From: a virus
Direction: 5' to 3' (one strand)
Length of the DNA stretch: 64,000 bases
Virus record (IMG/VR): IMGVR_UViG_3300036846_000488
Coordinates: 1 to 64,000 of that record
Of this stretch, positions 2,694-13,500 are shown in pieces. Numbering within the stretch: position 1 is the stretch's first letter; every line of letters starts with the position of its first letter. The notes under the pieces are model-generated. The model made no database searches, was not told where the DNA came from, and saw only the letters and a program-made list of their open reading frames with translations. The position numbers were made by a program, and so were the translations under genes.

Positions 2694-3692
2694 CTACGCC
2701 ACCGCGTTGGCCAGGAAGATGCCCATGTCCTTGGCGACCACGCGCATGTCGTACGTCATCTCGCCCTCGATGCGGTCCGCAGCGATCGGCTCCATCCGGA
2801 AGTTCTTCATCCGGATCCCGAAGCTGTTCCCAGCCAGGTACCCGTTCCAGGTGAAGGTGTAGCCACCAGCCGGAGTCATCAGGGACGGCGAGCTGGGGGT
2901 GTAGACCAGCAGCGCCGACTTGGAGTTGGACATGAACTGGTACGTCGCGGCGGCGTCCTGCGCCTTGGCGTCGTTCAGCTCGGCCACGTTGGTCACCGTC
3001 GCGTAGCTGACCAGGATCCGCTCCACGTCGAACAGCGACGCGAGCAGGTCGGTGGTCACCACACCACGCTGGGTGTACTTGATCCGGTCGATGATGTCCG
3101 GGTGGTTCTTCAGCTGGGTGATCGTCCGAGCACCGAGGACCAGCGTGTTGGCCTTGCGGCCTGACTGCTCCACGAAGTTCGTCTGCAGGTCAGCGAACTG
3201 CACGATCGGGTCCGAGGCCGGGTCGCTCCACTGCAGGAACTGCCCTGCACCGACTGTCCCGGTCACGCCGGTGAGGTCGGTGCCCCACTGGCCGGTGGTG
3301 AAGAACTTGCTGTTCCAGTCCAGGTCCCGCCGGAGCAGGAGCTGGTTGGTCACGAACGTGGTCGCGTCCGAGTCCAGCCGCCAGTTCGAGTCGGCGTTGG
3401 AGCGCACCTGGTCGTCGATGTCCTTGTGGACACCCCAGACCTCGCAGAAGTACTGCCCCGTGTCGATCTTCCAACCGACTCCAGCCGTCTCGGTGCCGGG
3501 CGCGCGTTTCTGCGCGTCGGTCCTGCGCCAGTCGGACTTGGAGTACTTCCAGTACAGATCGCTCTGCTTCTGCACCGGCACCCGCGGGAACACCTTGTCC
3601 GCGATGAACTGCGCCTTGTCCTGCATGTAGGCGACAGAGACGTTGGTGAGCGGAACATTGACGTGGAGATCGCTCTGAGTGGGGTTCGGCAT
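2694..3692 (-). CDS. major capsid protein
   Basis: 332 aa; PLTNVSVAY...FIADKVFPRVPVQKQSD N-terminus of lambda gpE-like HK97-fold capsid proteins; follows scaffold and decoration genes. Confidence 0.88.
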   Translation of the reverse strand: MPNPTQSDLHVNVPLTNVSVAYMQDKAQFIADKVFPRVPVQKQSDLYWKYSKSDWRRTDAQKRAPGTETAGVGWKIDTGQYFCEVWGVHKDIDDQVRSNADSNWRLDSDATTFVTNQLLLRRDLDWNSKFFTTGQWGTDLTGVTGTVGAGQFLQWSDPASDPIVQFADLQTNFVEQSGRKANTLVLGARTITQLKNHPDIIDRIKYTQRGVVTTDLLASLFDVERILVSYATVTNVAELNDAKAQDAAATYQFMSNSKSALLVYTPSSPSLMTPAGGYTFTWNGYLAGNSFGIRMKNFRMEPIAADRIEGEMTYDMRVVAKDMGIFLANAVA

Positions 3693-3705: not shown

Positions 3706-4107
3706 TCAGATCGTCAGGAGAACGTTGACGAGTTCTCCGGCGTTGGCGGCGGTGGACAGTGCGATGCCGACGATGGCGGTGGCACCTGCGGACGTGGCCT
3801 GGCCATCTGCACTGACCTGGACCTTGGCACCCGCGACGATCGGCGCATCGGCGACCACCTTGGACACCCCGTGGATGGCGACCGTGGCGGCCTGGCCGGC
3901 ACCCTGGGGCTTGTTCTGCATCACCCCGATGCAGGGACCGGTGCCATCACCCAGTCCCACCTGATGCACCCCGGTCACCTTCACGAAGTGGTACTGCTTC
4001 CCACCATTCGGATCCAGGGAGCCGGGCTGACCCGGGACTCCCGTGTAGATGCCCAGGGACGAGTCCGCGTTCAGCGTGATCGACCGTAGGCTCTCTTCGT
4101 AGGCCAT
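3706..4107 (-). CDS. capsid decoration/cement protein (DUF2190-like)
   Basis: 133 aa; GVMQNKP..GQAATVAIHGVSKV...VGIALSTA pattern; directly upstream of MCP. Confidence 0.75.
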   Translation of the reverse strand: MAYEESLRSITLNADSSLGIYTGVPGQPGSLDPNGGKQYHFVKVTGVHQVGLGDGTGPCIGVMQNKPQGAGQAATVAIHGVSKVVADAPIVAGAKVQVSADGQATSAGATAIVGIALSTAANAGELVNVLLTI

Positions 4108-4121
4108 GAGCTACTTCCCTC

Positions 4122-4946
4122 CTACCGGTTCTGCTGCGAACGCAGGTACTCGTCGTAGGCGTCCGGATTCTGGTCGAACACCGTATTGATGGCTGAGACA
4201 GCGTTGTAGTCCTCGGACTTCCCGAAGGCCTCGTGAGCGTGCGCCTCGACCTGGCTGTAGATGTCGGCGTTGTCGCCGCCACCCTGGTAGCCGGTCTCCT
4301 CGAAGATGATCTCGCCCGCCGTCTCCAGCGCCTTGGCGATCACCTTGCAGTCGTCGAAGCTCATCGTCTCGGCCATCCGGTAGAGCACCGGACCGAGCTC
4401 GTCGGCAGGGATCGGGAGGTTGTACTCCGCGGCCTTGGAGATGTACTCGCGGGTCAGCCGGAGGTCTCGCTCGGACTTCGCGATCCGGCTGTTCTCCTGC
4501 AGCGCGGTCTCCAGCTCCTCGACTCGACCGAGCGCCTTGGCGATCACCGAGTCGCGGTCCTTGTCGCTGAACGCCTTGCTGAGCTCCTCCATCACCGCAG
4601 CTGAGAAGCTGCCGGTCTGCGGAGCAGACTTCTCGAAGAAGGCCGACTTACCGACCCCAGCGAGCTCGGGCACGGGCTGGTCCTCCTCCACCATCACATC
4701 GCCGTCGTCCGCGCCATCGTCCTCGACGTACTCGTAGGCCTGGCCTGCGTCGTCGTACACGATGTCGCCGAACTCCAGCTGGTCCTCATCGAGGGGCTTA
4801 CCCTCCTGGTTGTAGAGCTTGGGCATCTCTTCCTCCTCGGGAGCCCGCTTCGCGATGACGAACCGTGAGTACTGGTTCGCGGCCTTGTCGACTGTGGAGA
4901 TCTCGTCGATCTCCATGTCCGTCAAGTTCTTGATCGGTCGTGGCAT
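4122..4946 (-). CDS. capsid scaffolding protein with N-terminal XkdF/prohead-protease strand
   Basis: Acidic, helical, upstream of decoration/MCP; begins MPRPIKNLTDMEIDEISTVDKAAN; 10 of 15 Lys lie in hydrophobic-x-K-[ASR]. Confidence 0.72.
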   Translation of the reverse strand: MPRPIKNLTDMEIDEISTVDKAANQYSRFVIAKRAPEEEEMPKLYNQEGKPLDEDQLEFGDIVYDDAGQAYEYVEDDGADDGDVMVEEDQPVPELAGVGKSAFFEKSAPQTGSFSAAVMEELSKAFSDKDRDSVIAKALGRVEELETALQENSRIAKSERDLRLTREYISKAAEYNLPIPADELGPVLYRMAETMSFDDCKVIAKALETAGEIIFEETGYQGGGDNADIYSQVEAHAHEAFGKSEDYNAVSAINTVFDQNPDAYDEYLRSQQNR

Positions 4947-4957
4947 CTCATCTACCT

Positions 4958-6337
4958 CTAGTTCTCAGTCTCACGGTGCTGTCCATTCGGGTTGTCGCTG
5001 TGATCGACTCCGAAGGCTGATGTGGTGTCGCGCTTCTCGTAGGACTGCCAGGAGTTCCTCCGGCCATGATGAGCCAGAGCAGCCCCGGCACCAGTCACCG
5101 CAGCCACCCCACCCAGACCAGCAGCGAGCTTCCCGCTCCGGGTTGCCTTGGCATGACGCACCGCCTGAGCCGCCTTCACGTTCGGCAGGTGCCGGGCCTG
5201 GATCTGACCCGCAGTCCGGTTCTTGCTCTCGTTCTTCAGCGCGTGGACTCCAGCCGCTACCGCACCTGTTCCAGTGCCCGCAGCCACGGACGCTCCACCG
5301 ACCTCGTACTTCTTCGCGCGCGCGTGCCGTTTCGCCTCGGGGTCGTAGTTCCGAGCCACCGGCTCCCAGGCCTTGGCGATCTCCTCCTCGATCTGCTCGT
5401 GGGTGATCGCGTGGCCCTCCTCACCGAAGTAGCCCATCTCCATGCCGAGGTCCGATGCTCCTTCAGACTTCTTCACCGGTACTGCCTGCTTCCGCCGGCG
5501 CGACTCCGCCGAGTAGATGCTCGCCTGGTTGAAGCCGCCCACGCCGCCGATGCCACCAGAGACGATCCCGGTGTTGATCGCGGCGTTCTTCATCCCCTCC
5601 GGAGTCGCGTTCCCCAGCTTCGGGACCTTCCGGATCGCCTTCAGGGTGCCGGTGCCCACCCTGCCCTTGCGCGCAGCCACCGCGGCCACGCCGGTGATCC
5701 CGAGCCCGGACAGACCCAGAGTGGAGGTGGTCCGGGCGATCTTGCCCTGGATCTTCTGGCGATGACGGAGCTCGGTGTCGCTCATCGAACGAGCCTTGCT
5801 GACCGGCTTCCGCGCCCTCAGCTTCGTCTGCTGGACGGCCAGCGTCTTCTTCTGCTCCTTCCGCGTCGCCAGTCCGGCGGTGGCAGTCAGTCCGGCTCCG
5901 CCTGCGATCCCAGCCATCCCCCAGCGACCCGGGTGGTGCGCCTTCTCCGCGGCCTTGGTACCGACATCGGTGATCAGATGCACCGACTCTCCCCGGGGGA
6001 TGAACCGCTTCTCCAGCTTCTCCTTGTTCTCAGCGATCTTTCGGTCTCGACGAGTCGTGCCGAGGTAGGCAGGAGAACCTGCTGCGGTGCCGATCACAGA
6101 TCCGGTGAGCACCGCGTTCAAGTTGGTGCCTCGACGGATGGAGCGGTCGTCCTTCATGTCCTGGTTCAGCTGGCCGAACCTGCGACCCTTCGGCTTCCCA
6201 TTCGACTTCAGACGGGTAGCTGGATCGCTGGTGAGGTTCCCGACCCGGGCCTGGGCCCGGGCCTGAGCCCTGCCCCGGACCGCGTGGAAGGCCCCACGCA
6301 CCTTGTCGGTCCTCTTCGGGAGCCTCAGCGTGGTCAT
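4958..6337 (-). CDS. cationic Gly/Ala-rich multi-module putative internal head polyprotein
   Basis: 459 aa, SD GGGAGG; repeated basic + small-residue hydrophobic segments separated by LEK|R, VSK|A, VKK|S, IAK|A, YEK|R; C-terminal SAFGVDHSD. Confidence 0.6.
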   Translation of the reverse strand: MTTLRLPKRTDKVRGAFHAVRGRAQARAQARVGNLTSDPATRLKSNGKPKGRRFGQLNQDMKDDRSIRRGTNLNAVLTGSVIGTAAGSPAYLGTTRRDRKIAENKEKLEKRFIPRGESVHLITDVGTKAAEKAHHPGRWGMAGIAGGAGLTATAGLATRKEQKKTLAVQQTKLRARKPVSKARSMSDTELRHRQKIQGKIARTTSTLGLSGLGITGVAAVAARKGRVGTGTLKAIRKVPKLGNATPEGMKNAAINTGIVSGGIGGVGGFNQASIYSAESRRRKQAVPVKKSEGASDLGMEMGYFGEEGHAITHEQIEEEIAKAWEPVARNYDPEAKRHARAKKYEVGGASVAAGTGTGAVAAGVHALKNESKNRTAGQIQARHLPNVKAAQAVRHAKATRSGKLAAGLGGVAAVTGAGAALAHHGRRNSWQSYEKRDTTSAFGVDHSDNPNGQHRETEN

Positions 6338-6390
6338 AAACGCCTCCCGTGGCCGTTGCAGAAAGACTTTCCGGCCCCTACGCTGAAAGA

Positions 6391-6714
6391 ATGGGATCCA
6401 GCAAGGAGTACATGCGCGAGTGGCGAGCGAAGAACCAGGACAAGATACGCGAGTACAACCGCAAGAGTCGGTACAACAGGTACGGCCCCTCCCGCCAGGC
6501 CGCCATCGACTACCTCGGTGGGCGGTGTCACGGCTGCGGCTTCGATGATGTCCGATGCCTCGATGTCGACCACGTTTTCGGCGGTGGGAGCAAGGAGCGC
6601 GCTCGGCGCGACCGGATTGCCTTCTACAAAGATGTCGTCGCCGGGGACCGCCCAGATGTCCAGCTTCTCTGTCTCAACTGCCATCGGATCAAGACCTCTC
6701 TGGAGCGTCAGTAA
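6391..6714 (+). CDS. HNH endonuclease, free-standing, antisense to the structural operon
   Basis: CHGCG...LDVDHV.GGG...QLLCLNCHRIKT HNH/Zn motif. Confidence 0.85.
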   Translation: MGSSKEYMREWRAKNQDKIREYNRKSRYNRYGPSRQAAIDYLGGRCHGCGFDDVRCLDVDHVFGGGSKERARRDRIAFYKDVVAGDRPDVQLLCLNCHRIKTSLERQ

Positions 6715-7834
6715 CAGGACTCCGACGGCCCGAGCCATGGATGCTGAACCCGGTCCGCTCGCCGGACTTCACCTTCGCCCAGACATCGGGATCCTGGACC
6801 TTGAATCCGACCCACCAACCGGTGGGCACCGAGTCTGGCAGACCCATCGCGTCTCGCTTCTCCGGAGTCACGATGAAGCTCTCGATCATCTCGCTCTTCT
6901 GGACCGGGCTCCAGTCGTCACGCAGGTGCATGTCCCCGCCCTTGCGGGACTTCATCACGTACTCGTAGCCGGCCTTCTCCATCTCGTCGACGGAGATGTA
7001 GTCGCCCTGCAGATCTACCACCGGCTCCCCGTTCACCTCCACCACCGAGGCCCAGCCGAAGATCTGCTGCTTGTCGGCGTCGGCCTTGGAGATCTCGGCG
7101 TTCCAGATCACGTCTACTTCGGTGTCGTCGGCCTTGCTGATCTGAGGTACCGGTTGGACGAACTTCCCCCGTACCTTCCCGTTCGGCTTGGCGGTGCCGG
7201 CTCGCACCCGCTCGTTGTACGCCGCCCGCATCTTCTCCTTGTCGAACCGGAGCGCCTTCTCGACCTGGTTGGTGGTGATCACCTTGTCCGGGAGCTTCTT
7301 CAGCGCCCCAGCGCCCTTCTTGGTGTACTCCAGCCCCTTCTTCCGGACCTTCGGGTTGGAGATCACAGCCATGGTCAGCTGTCCCTTGGTCCGGGGGATG
7401 CCGGCGTTGTTCCGCATGTCGGTGGAGTCCGCCTTGACCACCGGAGTCTTCTTCTTGGTGTCCCCGTGCAGGATCTTGGTGGCCATCAGCTCACCACCCA
7501 GCCCCGCCACCTCCAGTGGCACCAGTCCGGCGGCCAGCTTCTTGGACTTCACCGCGGTCTTCAGCGCCCTGAACTTGGCCCTGGGTGCATGGAACTCGTG
7601 GGCTGCCTGCTGCGCCTCCCGAGCCTTGCGGTACCCGCCATGCGTCTCAGAGGCAGCCAGCCCCAGACCAGCAGCACCAGCGGTGGCTCCGACCGCGCTC
7701 AGCCCGGCGGTGAACGCTCGCTTGCGCTTGTCGTGGGTGGCCAGGTCGGACTGGGCGGGGTTCATCTTCTCGATCAGCTCGTCGCCGCCACCAGCGAGGA
7801 TCAGCTCGGCTACCTCCCGCATCACATCGCTCAT
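6689..7834 (-). CDS. XkdF-like (S78-type) prohead serine protease with long N-terminal cationic extension
   Basis: C-terminal core 6689-7084: IFGWASV...DLQGD...GDMH...ESF...GWWVGFKV...WAKVKSGERTGFSIHG. Confidence 0.82.
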   Translation of the reverse strand: MSDVMREVAELILAGGGDELIEKMNPAQSDLATHDKRKRAFTAGLSAVGATAGAAGLGLAASETHGGYRKAREAQQAAHEFHAPRAKFRALKTAVKSKKLAAGLVPLEVAGLGGELMATKILHGDTKKKTPVVKADSTDMRNNAGIPRTKGQLTMAVISNPKVRKKGLEYTKKGAGALKKLPDKVITTNQVEKALRFDKEKMRAAYNERVRAGTAKPNGKVRGKFVQPVPQISKADDTEVDVIWNAEISKADADKQQIFGWASVVEVNGEPVVDLQGDYISVDEMEKAGYEYVMKSRKGGDMHLRDDWSPVQKSEMIESFIVTPEKRDAMGLPDSVPTGWWVGFKVQDPDVWAKVKSGERTGFSIHGSGRRSPVTDAPERS

Positions 7835-7856: not shown

Positions 7857-10532
7857 CTACTCGTACGGGCGCATCGGGACGACCGGGATCTCCCGGCCCT
7901 CGTCCTCGATGTAGTCGGTGGTCGGTCCCGTCTCCACGTACTGGCCGGACAGTTTGAACATGTGCGGCCCTGCCGTCCGAACCATGTTCTCGTCCCGATG
8001 CCCGTGCTGGACCTCCAGCACCCGGTAGTTGAACTCGTCGGGATGCACCCCGGCCTGCTCCAGCACGTCCTGGTCGTTGACGTAGGAGAAGTCCTCGGAG
8101 ACTCGATGCCCCATGCTGTCGGTCCAGATCACGTCCTCGTAGTTGTCCAGATCGATGTCGTTCCAGGTCTCACTCTGCTGCGTGCTGGTGGCGAACCGGT
8201 GCAGCGCGGCCTCGAAGGACTGTGAGCTAACCACGGCGTACATCGGCTCACCATCCTCATCGACGCTCTGGACCCGAACTGAGCCGTTGTGATGAGATCC
8301 CAACACCGCGTCCAGGATCTCGTCCTCCTTCGCCCGGCGGGCCTCGGTGACCGCCATCCCGACCTGATCCCGGGAGTCGACGAACAGCTTCTGATCCAGG
8401 TACATGTCGGTGTCGTAATCACTCAGGTGCACCACCGCGTAGTAGGAGCGACCATCCGGATGCAGCTGGACCGGCCCGTACGGAGCCAGGTCCGGCTTGC
8501 CCTCGGGCTGCACCGCGGGCTCCACGTTGATCGCCGTGGAAGGTCCCGTCAGGTTGATCTCCGAGGGCGCTCCGGTCAGATTGATCTGCTGCTCTGGTAC
8601 CAGGCTGATCGTGGGCTGAGCGATCGAGATCTCCGCCGGCGCGATGTTGATCTCCTCCTGAGCGATACTGATCTGACGCTTGGGCCGAGGTCGCGGAGCG
8701 ATGTTGATCAGACCGCCGGTGATGTTGATCTCCTTCGGCTCTGGGGTCTCGGACTCAACCATCGGCTCCTCGGGCTCCTCCATCGCCGCTAGCTGCCGCC
8801 AGATATCGGCCCGCGGGCGCTCCTTGGTGGTCACTCGGGAGAAGCGGCCTGGGTTCTCCGGATCGCCCCCGCGCGGGTGCTCCTTGGCATCCCAGTCGGC
8901 CTTGGAGATCCGGTGCGAGGTCTGCTTCAGATGCACGACGGTGAGCCCGTTGTCCTCCCCCACCTGCGTGATCTGGAACTCTCCCCGGGTGATCCACTCC
9001 GCCTGCCGCTCGGAGACCAGCGGAGAAATGTTCAGCGCGTTGGCCTTCGGCTCCAGCATCATCACCAGTGGATGCGCGGAGGTGTCGGTCCGGCCCTCAC
9101 GCTTCGCGTGCGCGCGAGCGATCATCGGGCCCCACTTCCGGGCGAAGTGCTCGGAGAACGACCGATCCTCGGTGAACGAGGAGATCGGCAGGGTGAAGGT
9201 GCTGCCCTGCTTCAGCTCGTCCAGATGCTCGGTGGTCACCGTCATCCCCCGGTACAGCGCTGGAGCGTTCGCCGGCGCGGAATCCACAGCCTTGATCAGT
9301 GCCTTCAGCGACTTCTCGGTCTGGCTCAGCTTCATCTTGCCGGCGTAGTACTCGTTGTCCGGGTCCTCCATCTTCCGCGCCCGCTGGACGTGTGCGGACT
9401 TCCGGGACCAGGCCGCAGCGCCGTGCGCCAGCCGAGCCATCTCCTTGTCCCGGTGCTTCAGTGGGGTGATCAGGTAGCGCGGCTCCTTGACGTAGCCGAC
9501 AGCCTGAGCACTTCGGTGAACGATGGTTCCCTGGATCACCTTGGCTGAGGGGCTCTCCAGGGCGTTCACCTTGTGCCCAAGCTGCCGAGTTCGGGACTGG
9601 CCCCCGGCCCAGCGACCGTCGCCCCCACGCGGCTGATGCGGATCGAACCGCTTCTCCAGCTTGAACCGGTTCTCGATCAGTCGAACCACACACCGACAGT
9701 TCGGGTGCACGCCCGGTGACCAGAAGTCACCTTCCTTGGTCTTGAACTGCTCGTTGACCAGCACCTTCTGCCCGTGCAGCGGGCCGCACACCGGACAGAC
9801 CCGCTCGTCGTGAGCGGTGATCCAGATCTTCTGAGCGCGCTCGGTGAGCCGGCCCTTGTCCTGCATCCACATCCAAGCGAACTGCTTGGCCTGCTCCTCG
9901 ATGTTGTGCTCTTCCTGCTCGCTCAGCTTCTTGACCCGACCGGTGAAGGACTTGTCGATGTAGTCCCTGGACCTGGCCTTCACGTCGAACGACGCCGGAG
10001 ACTCCACCGAGGTGGTCAGCTGCTGGTTGTGTGCGTACCCGCGCATCTGTCGAGGGGTCAGCCCGTAGGCGTCCAGCACCTTGTCCGCTGCCGCCTTGGC
10101 CGGGATCCTCCGGTTCACCATCGTGTTGAAGCCCTCGGCCAGCGCATCCCGAGAGGAGGCGTGGAAGTAGTCCCCGACCTTCTCCGCGTGCTTCTCGGCC
10201 AGGTCGTAGATCACGCTCATCGGCACGTCACCGGCTCCGGCCCGCGTCCACGCGCGCACGTAGGCGTCCGCGATCACCGGAGCTGAGACCTTCCGGTACT
10301 GCGGCAGGAGGATCTGCCAGGTCATGTCTGCCAGCCGCAGCAGCTGACCGTAGGTGGGCTCTACCAACCCCCGCGCCTCGGCCTTCATCTGCGACACCAT
10401 CCGGGCCCGGACCATCGCCAGCGCGGCCTCCAGGGCCTCGGCTGGTGAGGTCAGGAAAGCCCCCGGGGCGGGTAGATCCCGGGGTCGGAGATCGGTGGGG
10501 TTGAAGTGCAGCTCAACCGAGGGAGAGGTCAC
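7857..10532 (-). CDS. MuF-like minor head protein fused to an ADP-ribosyltransferase domain and an unknown C-terminal domain
   Basis: KIWIT..DERVCPVC..LHG...HPNCRC MuF signature; LYRGM...ISSFT...QAEW R-S-E ART motifs at about 8901-9650. Confidence 0.8.
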   Translation of the reverse strand: MTSPSVELHFNPTDLRPRDLPAPGAFLTSPAEALEAALAMVRARMVSQMKAEARGLVEPTYGQLLRLADMTWQILLPQYRKVSAPVIADAYVRAWTRAGAGDVPMSVIYDLAEKHAEKVGDYFHASSRDALAEGFNTMVNRRIPAKAAADKVLDAYGLTPRQMRGYAHNQQLTTSVESPASFDVKARSRDYIDKSFTGRVKKLSEQEEHNIEEQAKQFAWMWMQDKGRLTERAQKIWITAHDERVCPVCGPLHGQKVLVNEQFKTKEGDFWSPGVHPNCRCVVRLIENRFKLEKRFDPHQPRGGDGRWAGGQSRTRQLGHKVNALESPSAKVIQGTIVHRSAQAVGYVKEPRYLITPLKHRDKEMARLAHGAAAWSRKSAHVQRARKMEDPDNEYYAGKMKLSQTEKSLKALIKAVDSAPANAPALYRGMTVTTEHLDELKQGSTFTLPISSFTEDRSFSEHFARKWGPMIARAHAKREGRTDTSAHPLVMMLEPKANALNISPLVSERQAEWITRGEFQITQVGEDNGLTVVHLKQTSHRISKADWDAKEHPRGGDPENPGRFSRVTTKERPRADIWRQLAAMEEPEEPMVESETPEPKEINITGGLINIAPRPRPKRQISIAQEEINIAPAEISIAQPTISLVPEQQINLTGAPSEINLTGPSTAINVEPAVQPEGKPDLAPYGPVQLHPDGRSYYAVVHLSDYDTDMYLDQKLFVDSRDQVGMAVTEARRAKEDEILDAVLGSHHNGSVRVQSVDEDGEPMYAVVSSQSFEAALHRFATSTQQSETWNDIDLDNYEDVIWTDSMGHRVSEDFSYVNDQDVLEQAGVHPDEFNYRVLEVQHGHRDENMVRTAGPHMFKLSGQYVETGPTTDYIEDEGREIPVVPMRPYE

Positions 10533-13500
10533 GCGGTGTTCTTCCGACGCAAGTAGCCCTCGTCATCCTGCTCGAACAACTCCGATCGGGTCTCAGCCAG
10601 ACCACGCTCACCAAGGTCTAGCTTGTTGTGCCGGTCCGGAAGCGTCTCGTACGCATGCTGGGTTTTCGCCAGCATCTCGCCAATCTCCACCTCACTCGGA
10701 GTCTCCCCGCTCTCGATCAGAGTCTGCAGCTCCTCGGCAGCAACCAGCGCCTTGTCACCGGGAGTGACATCGAGGAGCCCGTGACCATACCGCCAACGAC
10801 GCAGCGCCTCGACTCGCTGTCGCACCACTGCCTGCTTCTCGACATCGCTCATCGCCTGGCCCACCGAGTTAGGAGCGCTCGGACGCACCGCGACGCTCCG
10901 ATCCCATGAGCCCTGGTAATGTGCCTTGAGCGCGCGCATCCGGTGCACGTCGGTGATCCGTTCGAGCAGGTCTTCCTTCTTCGCACCCACGATCATGTCG
11001 ATGGCCCGGTTGTCGTAGTGGTCCTTGAAGATCCGCTGAGCCACCTGCCGGCGCATGTCGATGTTGTTCGGGTCCTGGACTGCCGGGTTCCGGTCGACCT
11101 CCTGGTAGACCTGGCGCAACGCACTGAGCTCGTTCTTCATCGCCTCATCGCCCCGCCTCGCCACCTCGGACAGAGGTAGTCCGGTGGTCACCGAACGGGT
11201 CCGGTTGTCGATCGCCTGGATCTGGGTGTCACGCTGAGCGTCGGAGTCGGTGGTCTGGTAGCCCTCGCCCTGGAACGTCATCGGGTCCGTGGTCCAGTAC
11301 AGCGCCATCCGAGGATCGAAGGCCACCGCGTTCAGGTCTCCGCGTGAGGCCGCATAGGCCTGAAGCGCGGACCTCTGACTGGGTGAGGACAGGTGACTCC
11401 GCAGCCTCTCGACCAGCTCGTTGAACCGAGCGTTGTGCTCCGGGTCCTGGATGGCCGTGGCGAAGGCCCCTGGATCTACCTTCGAGTCTGCCAACCCGAT
11501 CACGTCCTCGAACGCGAGCCGAGATGCCGGGTCGAGAGGCAGCTGCTGGATCTCGGTGAACAGATTCACCGCGCTGTCCTGGTACTGAGCCTGACGAGCG
11601 GCCTGGTCGACAGGTGTTGGCGCTCCTGCCGCTGTGGTCTCTGGAGTCGCAGCGGCCTCCTCCGTCGCCTCCGTCTGCGGGTTCGCAGCCCGCTGGTGGG
11701 GCACCCGATCGCCCTGACCAGGACCGATCCGACCACGCTGGTAGTCGGCCTGGGAGGCGGAGAACTTCTCGCTCCCGACCGAGCCACCGGCAACGGCGTT
11801 CGCCTCGGTGCCGAACAGACCCGCGCGCACCGCCGTGGGCCGGTTCCGACCGGGCTCGACGTAGCCCTTGTCCTTCTCTCCGGAGAAGGTCTCGTCCTCC
11901 TTGGTGATCACCGGGTGGGACTTGATGTAGTACGGGAACTGCTCGGCCAGCGCGTCCTGCGCGGCCTCGTAGCCCTTGGCATTCAGCTTGTAGTTCCCGG
12001 CCTTGCCGGCCATCACCATGTTCCGGGCAGCCCGGGACCACTCCACCTCATCCCGAGAGGGGTGATCCTTCATCCCCTGCTCGGCCACCAGACGCATGAT
12101 CTTCTCGTCCTCGGGAGTGAAGTCCGGGTCCTCCTGGTACTCCATGATCCGGGACTGGACCTTGGCCTTGATCGCCGGCCCGCGCTCGCCCGGGTACTCC
12201 TGCGCGACCTCGCGCTGGATCGCCTGCCGGACCGGAGCCGGCACGTCACCGGTGCTGACCTTGTTCGACTGCACCGCATCCAGGAGCTGCTCGTAGCGTC
12301 GGGTCATCCGCAGCGCCTTGTCGTTGTACCGACGCCCGCCCCGGAAGTCCTGCTCGAACTCGATCGAGAAGGTGCCCGAGCGCGAGGTCACCGTGACCCG
12401 ACGCGCACCGGAGATCAGCCCGGTGTAGATGTCCTCGGAGGTCAGCCCGCCCACCGAGCGGGTCCGGACGTACTCCCCACCCTTCAGCGCCTTCAGGTTC
12501 TTCAGGTTGAACGGCAGGTAGTGGTCGTCGCCGTAGCCGACCGCCTGAGTGACGATCTGCCCGTCCTTGTTCAGGATGATTCCCTCCGAGGGCGGCAGGT
12601 TCCCGGACTCGGACTGCAGGTTGTAGAGCTCCCCCTTGGGGAAGTTGGGGGAGCGCCTCAGCTGCTGGACGATCACCTTCCGGCCCTGAGCCAGTTCCGA
12701 ACGAGTCGGCGGGCGATCCATCGCCTTGGCCCGAGCAGCACCCATCTGGGAGATCGAAGGAGCGACCGGTCCGCCACCCTTGGGGTGCACCCGAGTACCC
12801 GACCGACGCATCCCGAGCTCGTCAGCCCGGGGCTTCTCACCGGCCCGAGGGACGTAGAGCTCGGTCTGGTCCGGCACCCCACCGGTGCTCTTGGCGCTCG
12901 CGATCGCGCGCCCGTAGAGCGCCACGATGTGCGCGTCCGGCTTCTTCTCGGTGCCCCGGTACCGATAGGCCGTCTTCCGGGCGGTAGGGCCGATCACGGC
13001 CTCGGCCTCGGCACCATGGCTGCCCACGACCTCCGCGAGCTTCGCCGCAGCCGCCACCTTCGTTCCCGGTGCGATCGCACCGACGTAGGAGCCGGTAGTA
13101 CCCACCCGGTTGTACAGACGCTCGTTGGAGGCCTTCATGTCCGGGGGAGCAGCGCGCCACTGAGCACCGAACGTGGGCATCTGGTCCAGAGCGGTGTTGG
13201 CCATCTCCATCCGCTGGCCGGTCCGGTCACCGGGCTGAGCACCCAGCGCGTGCGCCAGGCTGAACGCAGCCCCGCCGGCGGTCAGTGTGGTGGGCGTGGC
13301 GTCGGCCTCCAGCAGCGTGTAGTGCGGGTTCAGCAGCAGATGGTTGGCGTCGCCGGCCCCGCCCATGTGCCGGACCCGGAACTCGTTCCCCTGCTGGTCC
13401 GCGAACCGCAGGTGCACCTGACGGTCTCCGTCCGCGCCAGTGGACTGGCTGGCCACGTTCAAGAAGCCGGCCAGCTGTCGGTACTCGTCCTGGTACTGGG

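Follow-up and report, generated by a model that had tools for sequence, protein, structure and literature searches.

We examined a head-gene locus of an uncultured phage (IMG/VR record IMGVR_UViG_3300036846_000488) in which a prohead protease of the HK97/XkdF type appears to be encoded in two pieces, with the last conserved strand of the enzyme carried by the scaffold. The window – the whole stretch of DNA that was analysed – comprises 64 kb out of an 81-kb contig, and positions are window positions unless otherwise stated. All of the genes concerned lie on the minus strand. A gene for a MuF-like protein (7857-10532, -) is followed by that of the prohead protease (6689-7834, -; 381 amino acids (aa)), recognised from the list of open reading frames (ORFs), Pfam family PF14550 and an AlphaFold model (m640d807983a3). 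The scaffold-like ORF begins 1,742 nucleotides (nt) downstream of the protease stop and opens MPRPIKNLTDMEIDEISTVDKAANQYSRFVIAKR; in its long form it encodes 274 aa (4122-4946, -), is identified by gene order and by an alignment drawn from 717 homologues, and stands directly upstream of the cement/decoration gene (3706-4107, -; PF09956, E 3e-8) and the major capsid gene (2694-3692, -; phrog_1005, E 1.5e-87). Two further genes lie between protease and scaffold: one for a 459-aa Gly/Ala/Lys-rich protein (4958-6337, -), which found no family match in Pfam and PHROG searches, and, on the plus strand, a free-standing HNH endonuclease gene (6349-6714, +; PHROG HNH families, best E 4.7e-12).

The protease core occupies the C-terminal part of its chain. 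PF14550 (XkdF, Peptidase_S78_2) matches aa 247-370 (6725-7096, -) with 73.6 bits against a cut-off of 24 and covers profile positions 4-123 of 126, an assignment shared by the alignment, the AlphaFold model and a structural match to T4 gp21. His303 (codon 6926-6928, -) and the catalytic Ser364 (codon 6743-6745, -) are invariant in an alignment of 110 sequences and, via the Bacillus core, align with H65 and S114 of HK97. The serine motif, TGFSIHG, spans aa 361-367 and the ORF ends 17 residues past Ser364. Early termination is a conserved trait: of 120 close relatives with a recognised motif, 117 have chains that stop 9-20 residues past the first residue of GFS. The first-pass annotation, made from the letters of the window alone, had remarked on this stop and on a scaffold opening with the missing peptide some 1.7 kb downstream, and both remarks are borne out. 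What follows the serine is a short basic tail (IHGSGRRSPVTDAPERS; 6692-6742, -), recognised from the tails of relatives and from the model, which keeps IHGxG[RK]R in relatives and is predicted with low confidence (predicted local distance difference test score (pLDDT) 55-64) and no strand. It is a candidate partner of the scaffold peptide. A helical scaffold tail after the core is absent from the chain.

Ahead of the core, the roughly 240-aa N-terminal region is helical and Gly/Ala/Lys-rich. Residues 1-225 (7160-7834, -) have no family match. Long helices are predicted for them, aa 51-100 being modelled as helix with confidence (pLDDT 82-95), and they include a hydrophobic segment rich in Gly and Ala. 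In relatives the region ahead of the core varies widely in length and sequence, in the manner of a passenger domain. A search of the whole library with the core returned 5,136 cluster representatives at E 0.001 or better; in the best 150, which we used, the core lies mostly at the extreme C-terminus, preceded by variable N-terminal regions. An ISKAD repeat just ahead of the core was considered as a copy of the peptide and rejected, being the normal first strand of the Pfam core.

The nature of what is missing emerges from comparison with HK97 gp4 (PF04586, Peptidase_S78), a member of the same clan. Viral-contig relatives of gp4 proved near-identical and unfit for a profile, and eight diverse annotated phage S78 proteases were taken instead, giving with gp4 an alignment of nine. 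Five residues are invariant: the catalytic His65 and Ser114, and E141, S143 and N150 of the last conserved block. That third block (E-x-S ... N) is absent from the protease chain of the window, and its homologue is found at aa 6-35 of the scaffold (KNLTDMEIDEISTVDKAANQYSRFVIAKRA; 4842-4931, -). A profile built from 17 such peptides from different phages matches the S78 alignment with 90.5% probability (E 1.4e-6), placing scaffold aa 6-35 on gp4 131-161, and scaffold E15, S17 and N24 have the same spacing as E141, S143 and N150. HK97-type proteases do end in a strand of this kind, as the first-pass annotation had stated, gp4 carrying ...LREISVCTFPANEQAGIAAMKS at 139-160, inside its Pfam S78 domain. 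The likeness extends to the hydrophobic-x-Lys-Ser ending, which in gp4 stands ahead of the C-terminal part. In gp4 the segment past the serine strand belongs to the same chain, whereas in the window a gene boundary and two other genes intervene. Within the scaffold it is residues 8-42 that are best conserved, with a mean column conservation of 0.90 versus 0.65-0.86 elsewhere in an alignment of 29 out of the 717 homologues.

A second comparison is with single-chain XkdF proteins (PF14550), exemplified by XkdF of Bacillus PBSX and gp09 of Bacillus phage vB_BtS_B83. These share with the window the histidine and serine blocks of the core, an N-terminal peptide (opening MPR, VDKAANQ) and a site just upstream of the capsid gene. 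As the first-pass annotation had stated, the peptide stands in XkdF at the N-terminus of the protease chain itself: the 120 Bacillus XkdF proteins all open MPRELxNAKITHVSYVDKAANQKQFFFMKS. In a profile comparison residues 3-31 of these proteins pair with scaffold aa 6-35 (E 1e-4, 41% identity), and no similarity is detected between the scaffold tail and the XkdF C-terminus. The XkdF core, for its part, matches only gp4 22-116, from the first strand to the serine (a weak match, E 0.03, in the expected register). These comparisons support the homology of the scaffold N-terminus both to the last conserved S78 block and to the N-terminal peptide of single-chain XkdF. Judged from sequence, and relative to gp4, the segment has its place at the N-terminus in XkdF and on another protein in this phage. 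The difference in architecture is plain: XkdF is a single chain made up of peptide, core and helical scaffold tail, whereas in the window the core lies at the end of a 381-aa protein of its own and the scaffold, 1.7 kb away, carries the peptide as a direct fusion.

The distribution of the peptide is consistent with a division of one enzyme between two genes. A hidden Markov model (HMM) of the peptide matched the scaffolds and all Bacillus XkdF proteins and found no match below E 0.5 in 262 proteases of the clade. It located one copy in the window, on the scaffold; no second copy was found in the N-terminal 240 residues of the protease or elsewhere in the window. All of the best 150 core representatives, of the 5,136, were likewise without it. 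Clade proteins with long post-core extensions were considered as natural core-peptide fusions and rejected, the peptide being absent in all.

Fourteen other isolated or deposited phages with a similar core were then checked, five of which had not contributed to the training of the HMM. Peptide and core occur together in every one, in one chain or in two. The peptide lies within the protease chain in four (B83, Dulem virus 37, HHTV-2 and, weakly, HSTV-1) and at the start of a downstream gene in the remaining ten (RcZahn, CRP-6, RHph_Y1_11, RDJL6, RHEph19, DLP5, Mulvp2, Proteus 2207-N35, MT835491 and Kharcho). RcZahn of Rhodobacter (gp17/gp18), CRP-6 of Roseobacter (gp55/gp54), DLP5 of Stenotrophomonas and Kharcho of Arthrobacter (gp87/gp98) resemble the window in having a peptide-less core and a peptide that opens a downstream scaffold-like gene, a relationship that goes unannotated in their records. 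In most of these phages the two genes abut or overlap, whereas in the window and in Kharcho other genes lie between them. A small tree of the core has two well-supported main clades, in one of which one-chain and two-chain forms are mixed, indicating that the state has changed more than once. Nearer to the window, gene order is retained across ~80 related loci, and in most relatives the gene of the 459-aa protein lies between protease and scaffold.

Overlaps of 1-23 nt between protease and scaffold genes are seen in several two-gene phages (locus coordinates 5590-5612, 5366-5369 and 5549), and such an arrangement leaves room for translational coupling or the occasional frameshift fusion.

The scaffold gene contains a further feature of note. 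Within it, immediately past the peptide, a predicted ribosome-binding site and start codon (4824-4838, -) would permit a second product. The ATG of Met41 (4826-4824) is preceded by GAGGAGGAAGAG (4838-4827), in which GGAGG (4836-4832) is separated from the start codon by a 5-nt spacer. Among 63 distinct scaffold genes of the clade, extending down to ~31% protein identity, GGAGG stands exactly 5 nt ahead of an ATG (53) or a GTG (10) without exception; the strong internal signal pointed out in the first-pass annotation is thus conserved in the clade. Valine at the internal site is always encoded by GTG, as against 40% of valine codons elsewhere in the gene, and codon -4, which supplies the first G of GGAGG, has G in third position throughout, even though it may specify E, Q, P, S or T. 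Such conservation of nucleotides beyond the needs of the protein argues for a real second start, and for a scaffold of 234 aa without the peptide (4122-4826, -). By comparison the first start has, in this subclade, only AGAGG at longer spacing. From the nucleotide comparison, then, an internal start yielding a short scaffold appears well supported; the long form is this short form with 40 residues added.

Nested protease and scaffold genes are known from lambda (C/Nu3), Mu (I/Z) and the herpesviruses (UL26/UL26.5). As is predicted for the window, these use two starts in one frame to make a long, protease-linked form and a shorter scaffold with a common C-terminus. The difference is that in lambda, Mu and the herpesviruses the long form carries the whole protease covalently, whereas the long form of the window carries a strand of 35 residues.

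Our data lead us to propose, with a probability of roughly 0.6, that this is an HK97/XkdF-type prohead protease in two pieces, the last strand of which resides on the scaffold and docks in trans. The first-pass annotation had claimed as much, adding that the enzyme would be active only when docked and that two starts would set the stoichiometry. The division is upheld by homology, by a protease chain that lacks the strand, by the joint occurrence of strand and core and by the conserved internal start; docking, an effect on activity, the ratio of the two scaffold forms and the scaffold cut are the parts that we infer. The mechanism would run as follows. The core, with its catalytic histidine and serine, forms the C-terminal third of the 381-aa protein and ends just past the serine strand; the last segment of the protease (E-x-S-x-V-D-x-A-A-N ... 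hydrophobic-x-K) would be provided by the first 35 residues of the scaffold. The long scaffold form would bring this strand to the core, where it would dock, probably alongside the short basic tail that follows the serine. The scaffold would thereby hold on to the protease together with its 240-aa passenger region, and by virtue of this tether both would enter the procapsid. The active site, too, may be completed on docking. Initiation at Met41 would produce the second scaffold form, lacking the strand, probably more abundant and making up most of the scaffold, with the consequence that only a fraction of scaffold molecules would carry protease. The protease would thus probably be hooked onto a minority of scaffold molecules, and perhaps be completed by the scaffold peptide, the docking strand taking the place of the covalent link found in nested genes. 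The invariant Lys33-Arg34 just past the strand is a candidate cut that might later free the body of the scaffold.

Combinations of a hydrophobic residue, any residue and Lys, followed by Ala, Ser or Arg and acidic residues, recur at domain borders in the two proteins (4842-4946 and 6692-7160, -): VIAK|RAPEE past the peptide, and QISK|ADD and EISK|ADA just ahead of the core. In HK97 gp4 the equivalent place reads IAAMK|S. These borders are possible protease cutting sites.

Structure predictions, run with AlphaFold on single chains of the window protease and of a single-chain Bacillus XkdF (P0466), provide some support for this proposal. In the XkdF model the N-terminal strand (residues 3-16) is predicted with pLDDT 92/77 and the linker at 20-46 with values below 50; a confident strand adjoining a disordered linker implies that the strand packs on the core. 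The segment past the serine forms a 12-residue strand (145-156) in the same model. T4 gp21 (5jbl_A) is the top structural match of both models: the window model aligns at 236-369 with chain residues 2-144 (root-mean-square deviation 3.1 over 109 residues) and the XkdF model at 20-159 with residues 10-152. On the models, the window core has the herpesvirus/T4 gp21-like protease fold. The gp21 alignments end 4-12 residues past the catalytic Ser140 of a 165-residue chain, the window model ending at 4. Other searches were less informative: sequence searches of solved structures returned nothing for the window protease or B83 gp09, and Foldseek against the PDB gave no match at E 0.001 or better, with T4 gp21 ranked 12th.

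A number of points nonetheless weigh against the proposal. The core of the window protease (245-366) is predicted to fold alone with pLDDT 85-96, and the strand is not obviously needed for it. The peptide accordingly resembles an edge strand that has been added on, and less an element buried within the fold. In the XkdF model, VDKAAN and the F..K that follows reach only moderate to low confidence, and the alignment behind the model covers the peptide with just 30 rather similar Bacillus sequences. The scores of the gp21 matches (Z 8.0 for the window model, with the next structural match to the core at 5.6, and Z 8.8 for XkdF) stand clear of the next matches, although a Z of ~8 is close to the background level of the tool. 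The net charges of the 12 residues past the serine and of the peptide strand vary in opposite directions (Spearman -0.65, p 0.02, n 12 phages), as fits the pairing of tail and peptide with each other, but the phages are just 12 and mutually related. The two-chain complex is itself something we infer. Lastly, several lineages have His, Phe, Ile or Leu where the peptide motif has its glutamate, and any catalytic role for this residue is therefore not general.

This last point bears on a bolder version of the proposal, in which Glu15 would be a catalytic residue supplied in trans. The catalytic residues of T4 gp21 are H85 and S140 (PMC12991175), and in T4-like proteases the third residue of the triad is acidic and lies ~25 residues past the serine (PMC5694885). 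Glu141 of HK97 occupies that position and is invariant in S78 proteases; Glu15, which aligns with it, is invariant in the clade. We regard such a role as doubtful. Were it true, the protease would be chemically incomplete until it met the long scaffold form in the growing procapsid: an assembly-gated switch built from the splitting of a gene.

The peptide might instead be a substrate-like or pro-peptide segment that sits in the substrate groove and marks the scaffold for a cut after Lys33, outside the fold of the enzyme and recruiting it in the manner of any substrate. Precedent exists in T4 gp21, whose N-terminal region obstructs the catalytic centre until its removal by cleavage (PMC9958956), and every lineage has, past the peptide, an invariant or almost invariant hydrophobic-x-Lys followed by Arg, Ser or Ala; a core predicted to fold alone would suit this explanation too. 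The homology of the peptide points elsewhere, namely to an internal and invariant block of the S78 catalytic domain that lies within the Pfam boundaries, and not to known substrates. We consider a purely substrate-like role unlikely, while noting that the two readings are mutually compatible. Still less probable, in our view, is that the peptide is the relic of an ancestral fusion of protease and scaffold, retained for some other job, such as binding portal or capsid, that involves no contact with the protease. Single-chain XkdF makes such a history conceivable, since loss of the core from a chain of peptide, core and scaffold tail would leave peptide and scaffold, and the mixture of one-chain and two-chain forms in one main clade of the small core tree is in keeping with it. 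Against a relic stand the standing of the peptide as the best-conserved part of the scaffold, its retention of the S78 invariant residues, and its company: in 10 of 10 two-gene phages, from different host phyla, a peptide-less core goes with it, and in no phage checked does it occur where a core is lacking. Because the peptide keeps the invariant residues and always accompanies a core that lacks it, both of these explanations are less likely than docking of the strand in trans.

The presence of the HNH gene raises the question of whether the split is a recent accident, caused by insertion of a homing endonuclease into a once continuous protease-scaffold gene. There is a known case of this kind, the nrdA gene of Aeromonas phage Aeh1, which is split by mobE, and the window resembles it in that an HNH gene separates two genes that together encode an enzyme; moreover, the 3′ end of the HNH gene overlaps that of the protease by 26 nt. 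But none of 80 related viral loci contains a match to the HNH gene, and those that cover the protease region have a short protease and a scaffold peptide just as the window does, at a distance of 0.8-5 kb from each other. The early stop, kept in almost all close relatives, tells the same story. We give the accident next to no credence: all relatives that have the split lack the HNH gene, which on this comparison of loci reads as a recent mobile insertion and not as the cause.

The locus is apparently one member of a widespread and undescribed variant of a known protease family. A search of the literature on XkdF, split proteases and the catalytic residues of prohead proteases found no paper describing the split, and database records leave the scaffold partner unnamed or mislabelled. 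Only for a few model phages is it known how a prohead protease enters the capsid and what keeps it from doing harm beforehand. With the last conserved strand of the protease found on the scaffold, a simple answer suggests itself for a large group – large in view of the 5,136 cluster representatives of the core – in which the strand delivers the enzyme and may switch it on. If this is correct it would explain the varied passenger domains ahead of the core, among them a 2H phosphoesterase in Kharcho and the helical region in the window; the core would then be an all-purpose hook by which proteins are loaded into heads.

Some of the records themselves merit comment. Kharcho gp87 (9517-10656 of the stretch examined), annotated as 'RNA ligase', consists of a 2H-phosphoesterase/LigT-like domain fused to an XkdF core; the scaffold-like gp98, ten genes away, opens with the peptide, and no protease or scaffold annotation is present in the stretch examined. 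A 212-aa 'DNA methyltransferase/prohead protease' of a Rhizobium phage (4974-5612 of its locus) is XkdF core from its start, with no room for a methyltransferase domain, and a 'SICAR synthase' gene of a Proteus phage (4410-5369 of its locus) opens with the scaffold peptide. Both labels are likely to be misleading. Direct searches with the locus were sparing in their returns: megablast of the region gave a single match, of 49 nt in the capsid gene, and tblastn of the scaffold matched no isolated phage.

A final observation concerns a short motif, SAFG[VI][DE]H, that occurs near the C-terminus of the 459-aa protein (4994-5020, -) and again near the N-terminus of two small proteins (2573-2617 within 2303-2617, and 1717-1761 within 1393-1761, -). 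BLAST comparison of the protease N-terminal region, the 459-aa protein and these two proteins showed no likeness beyond the motif, which could be a shared targeting or cleavage tag.

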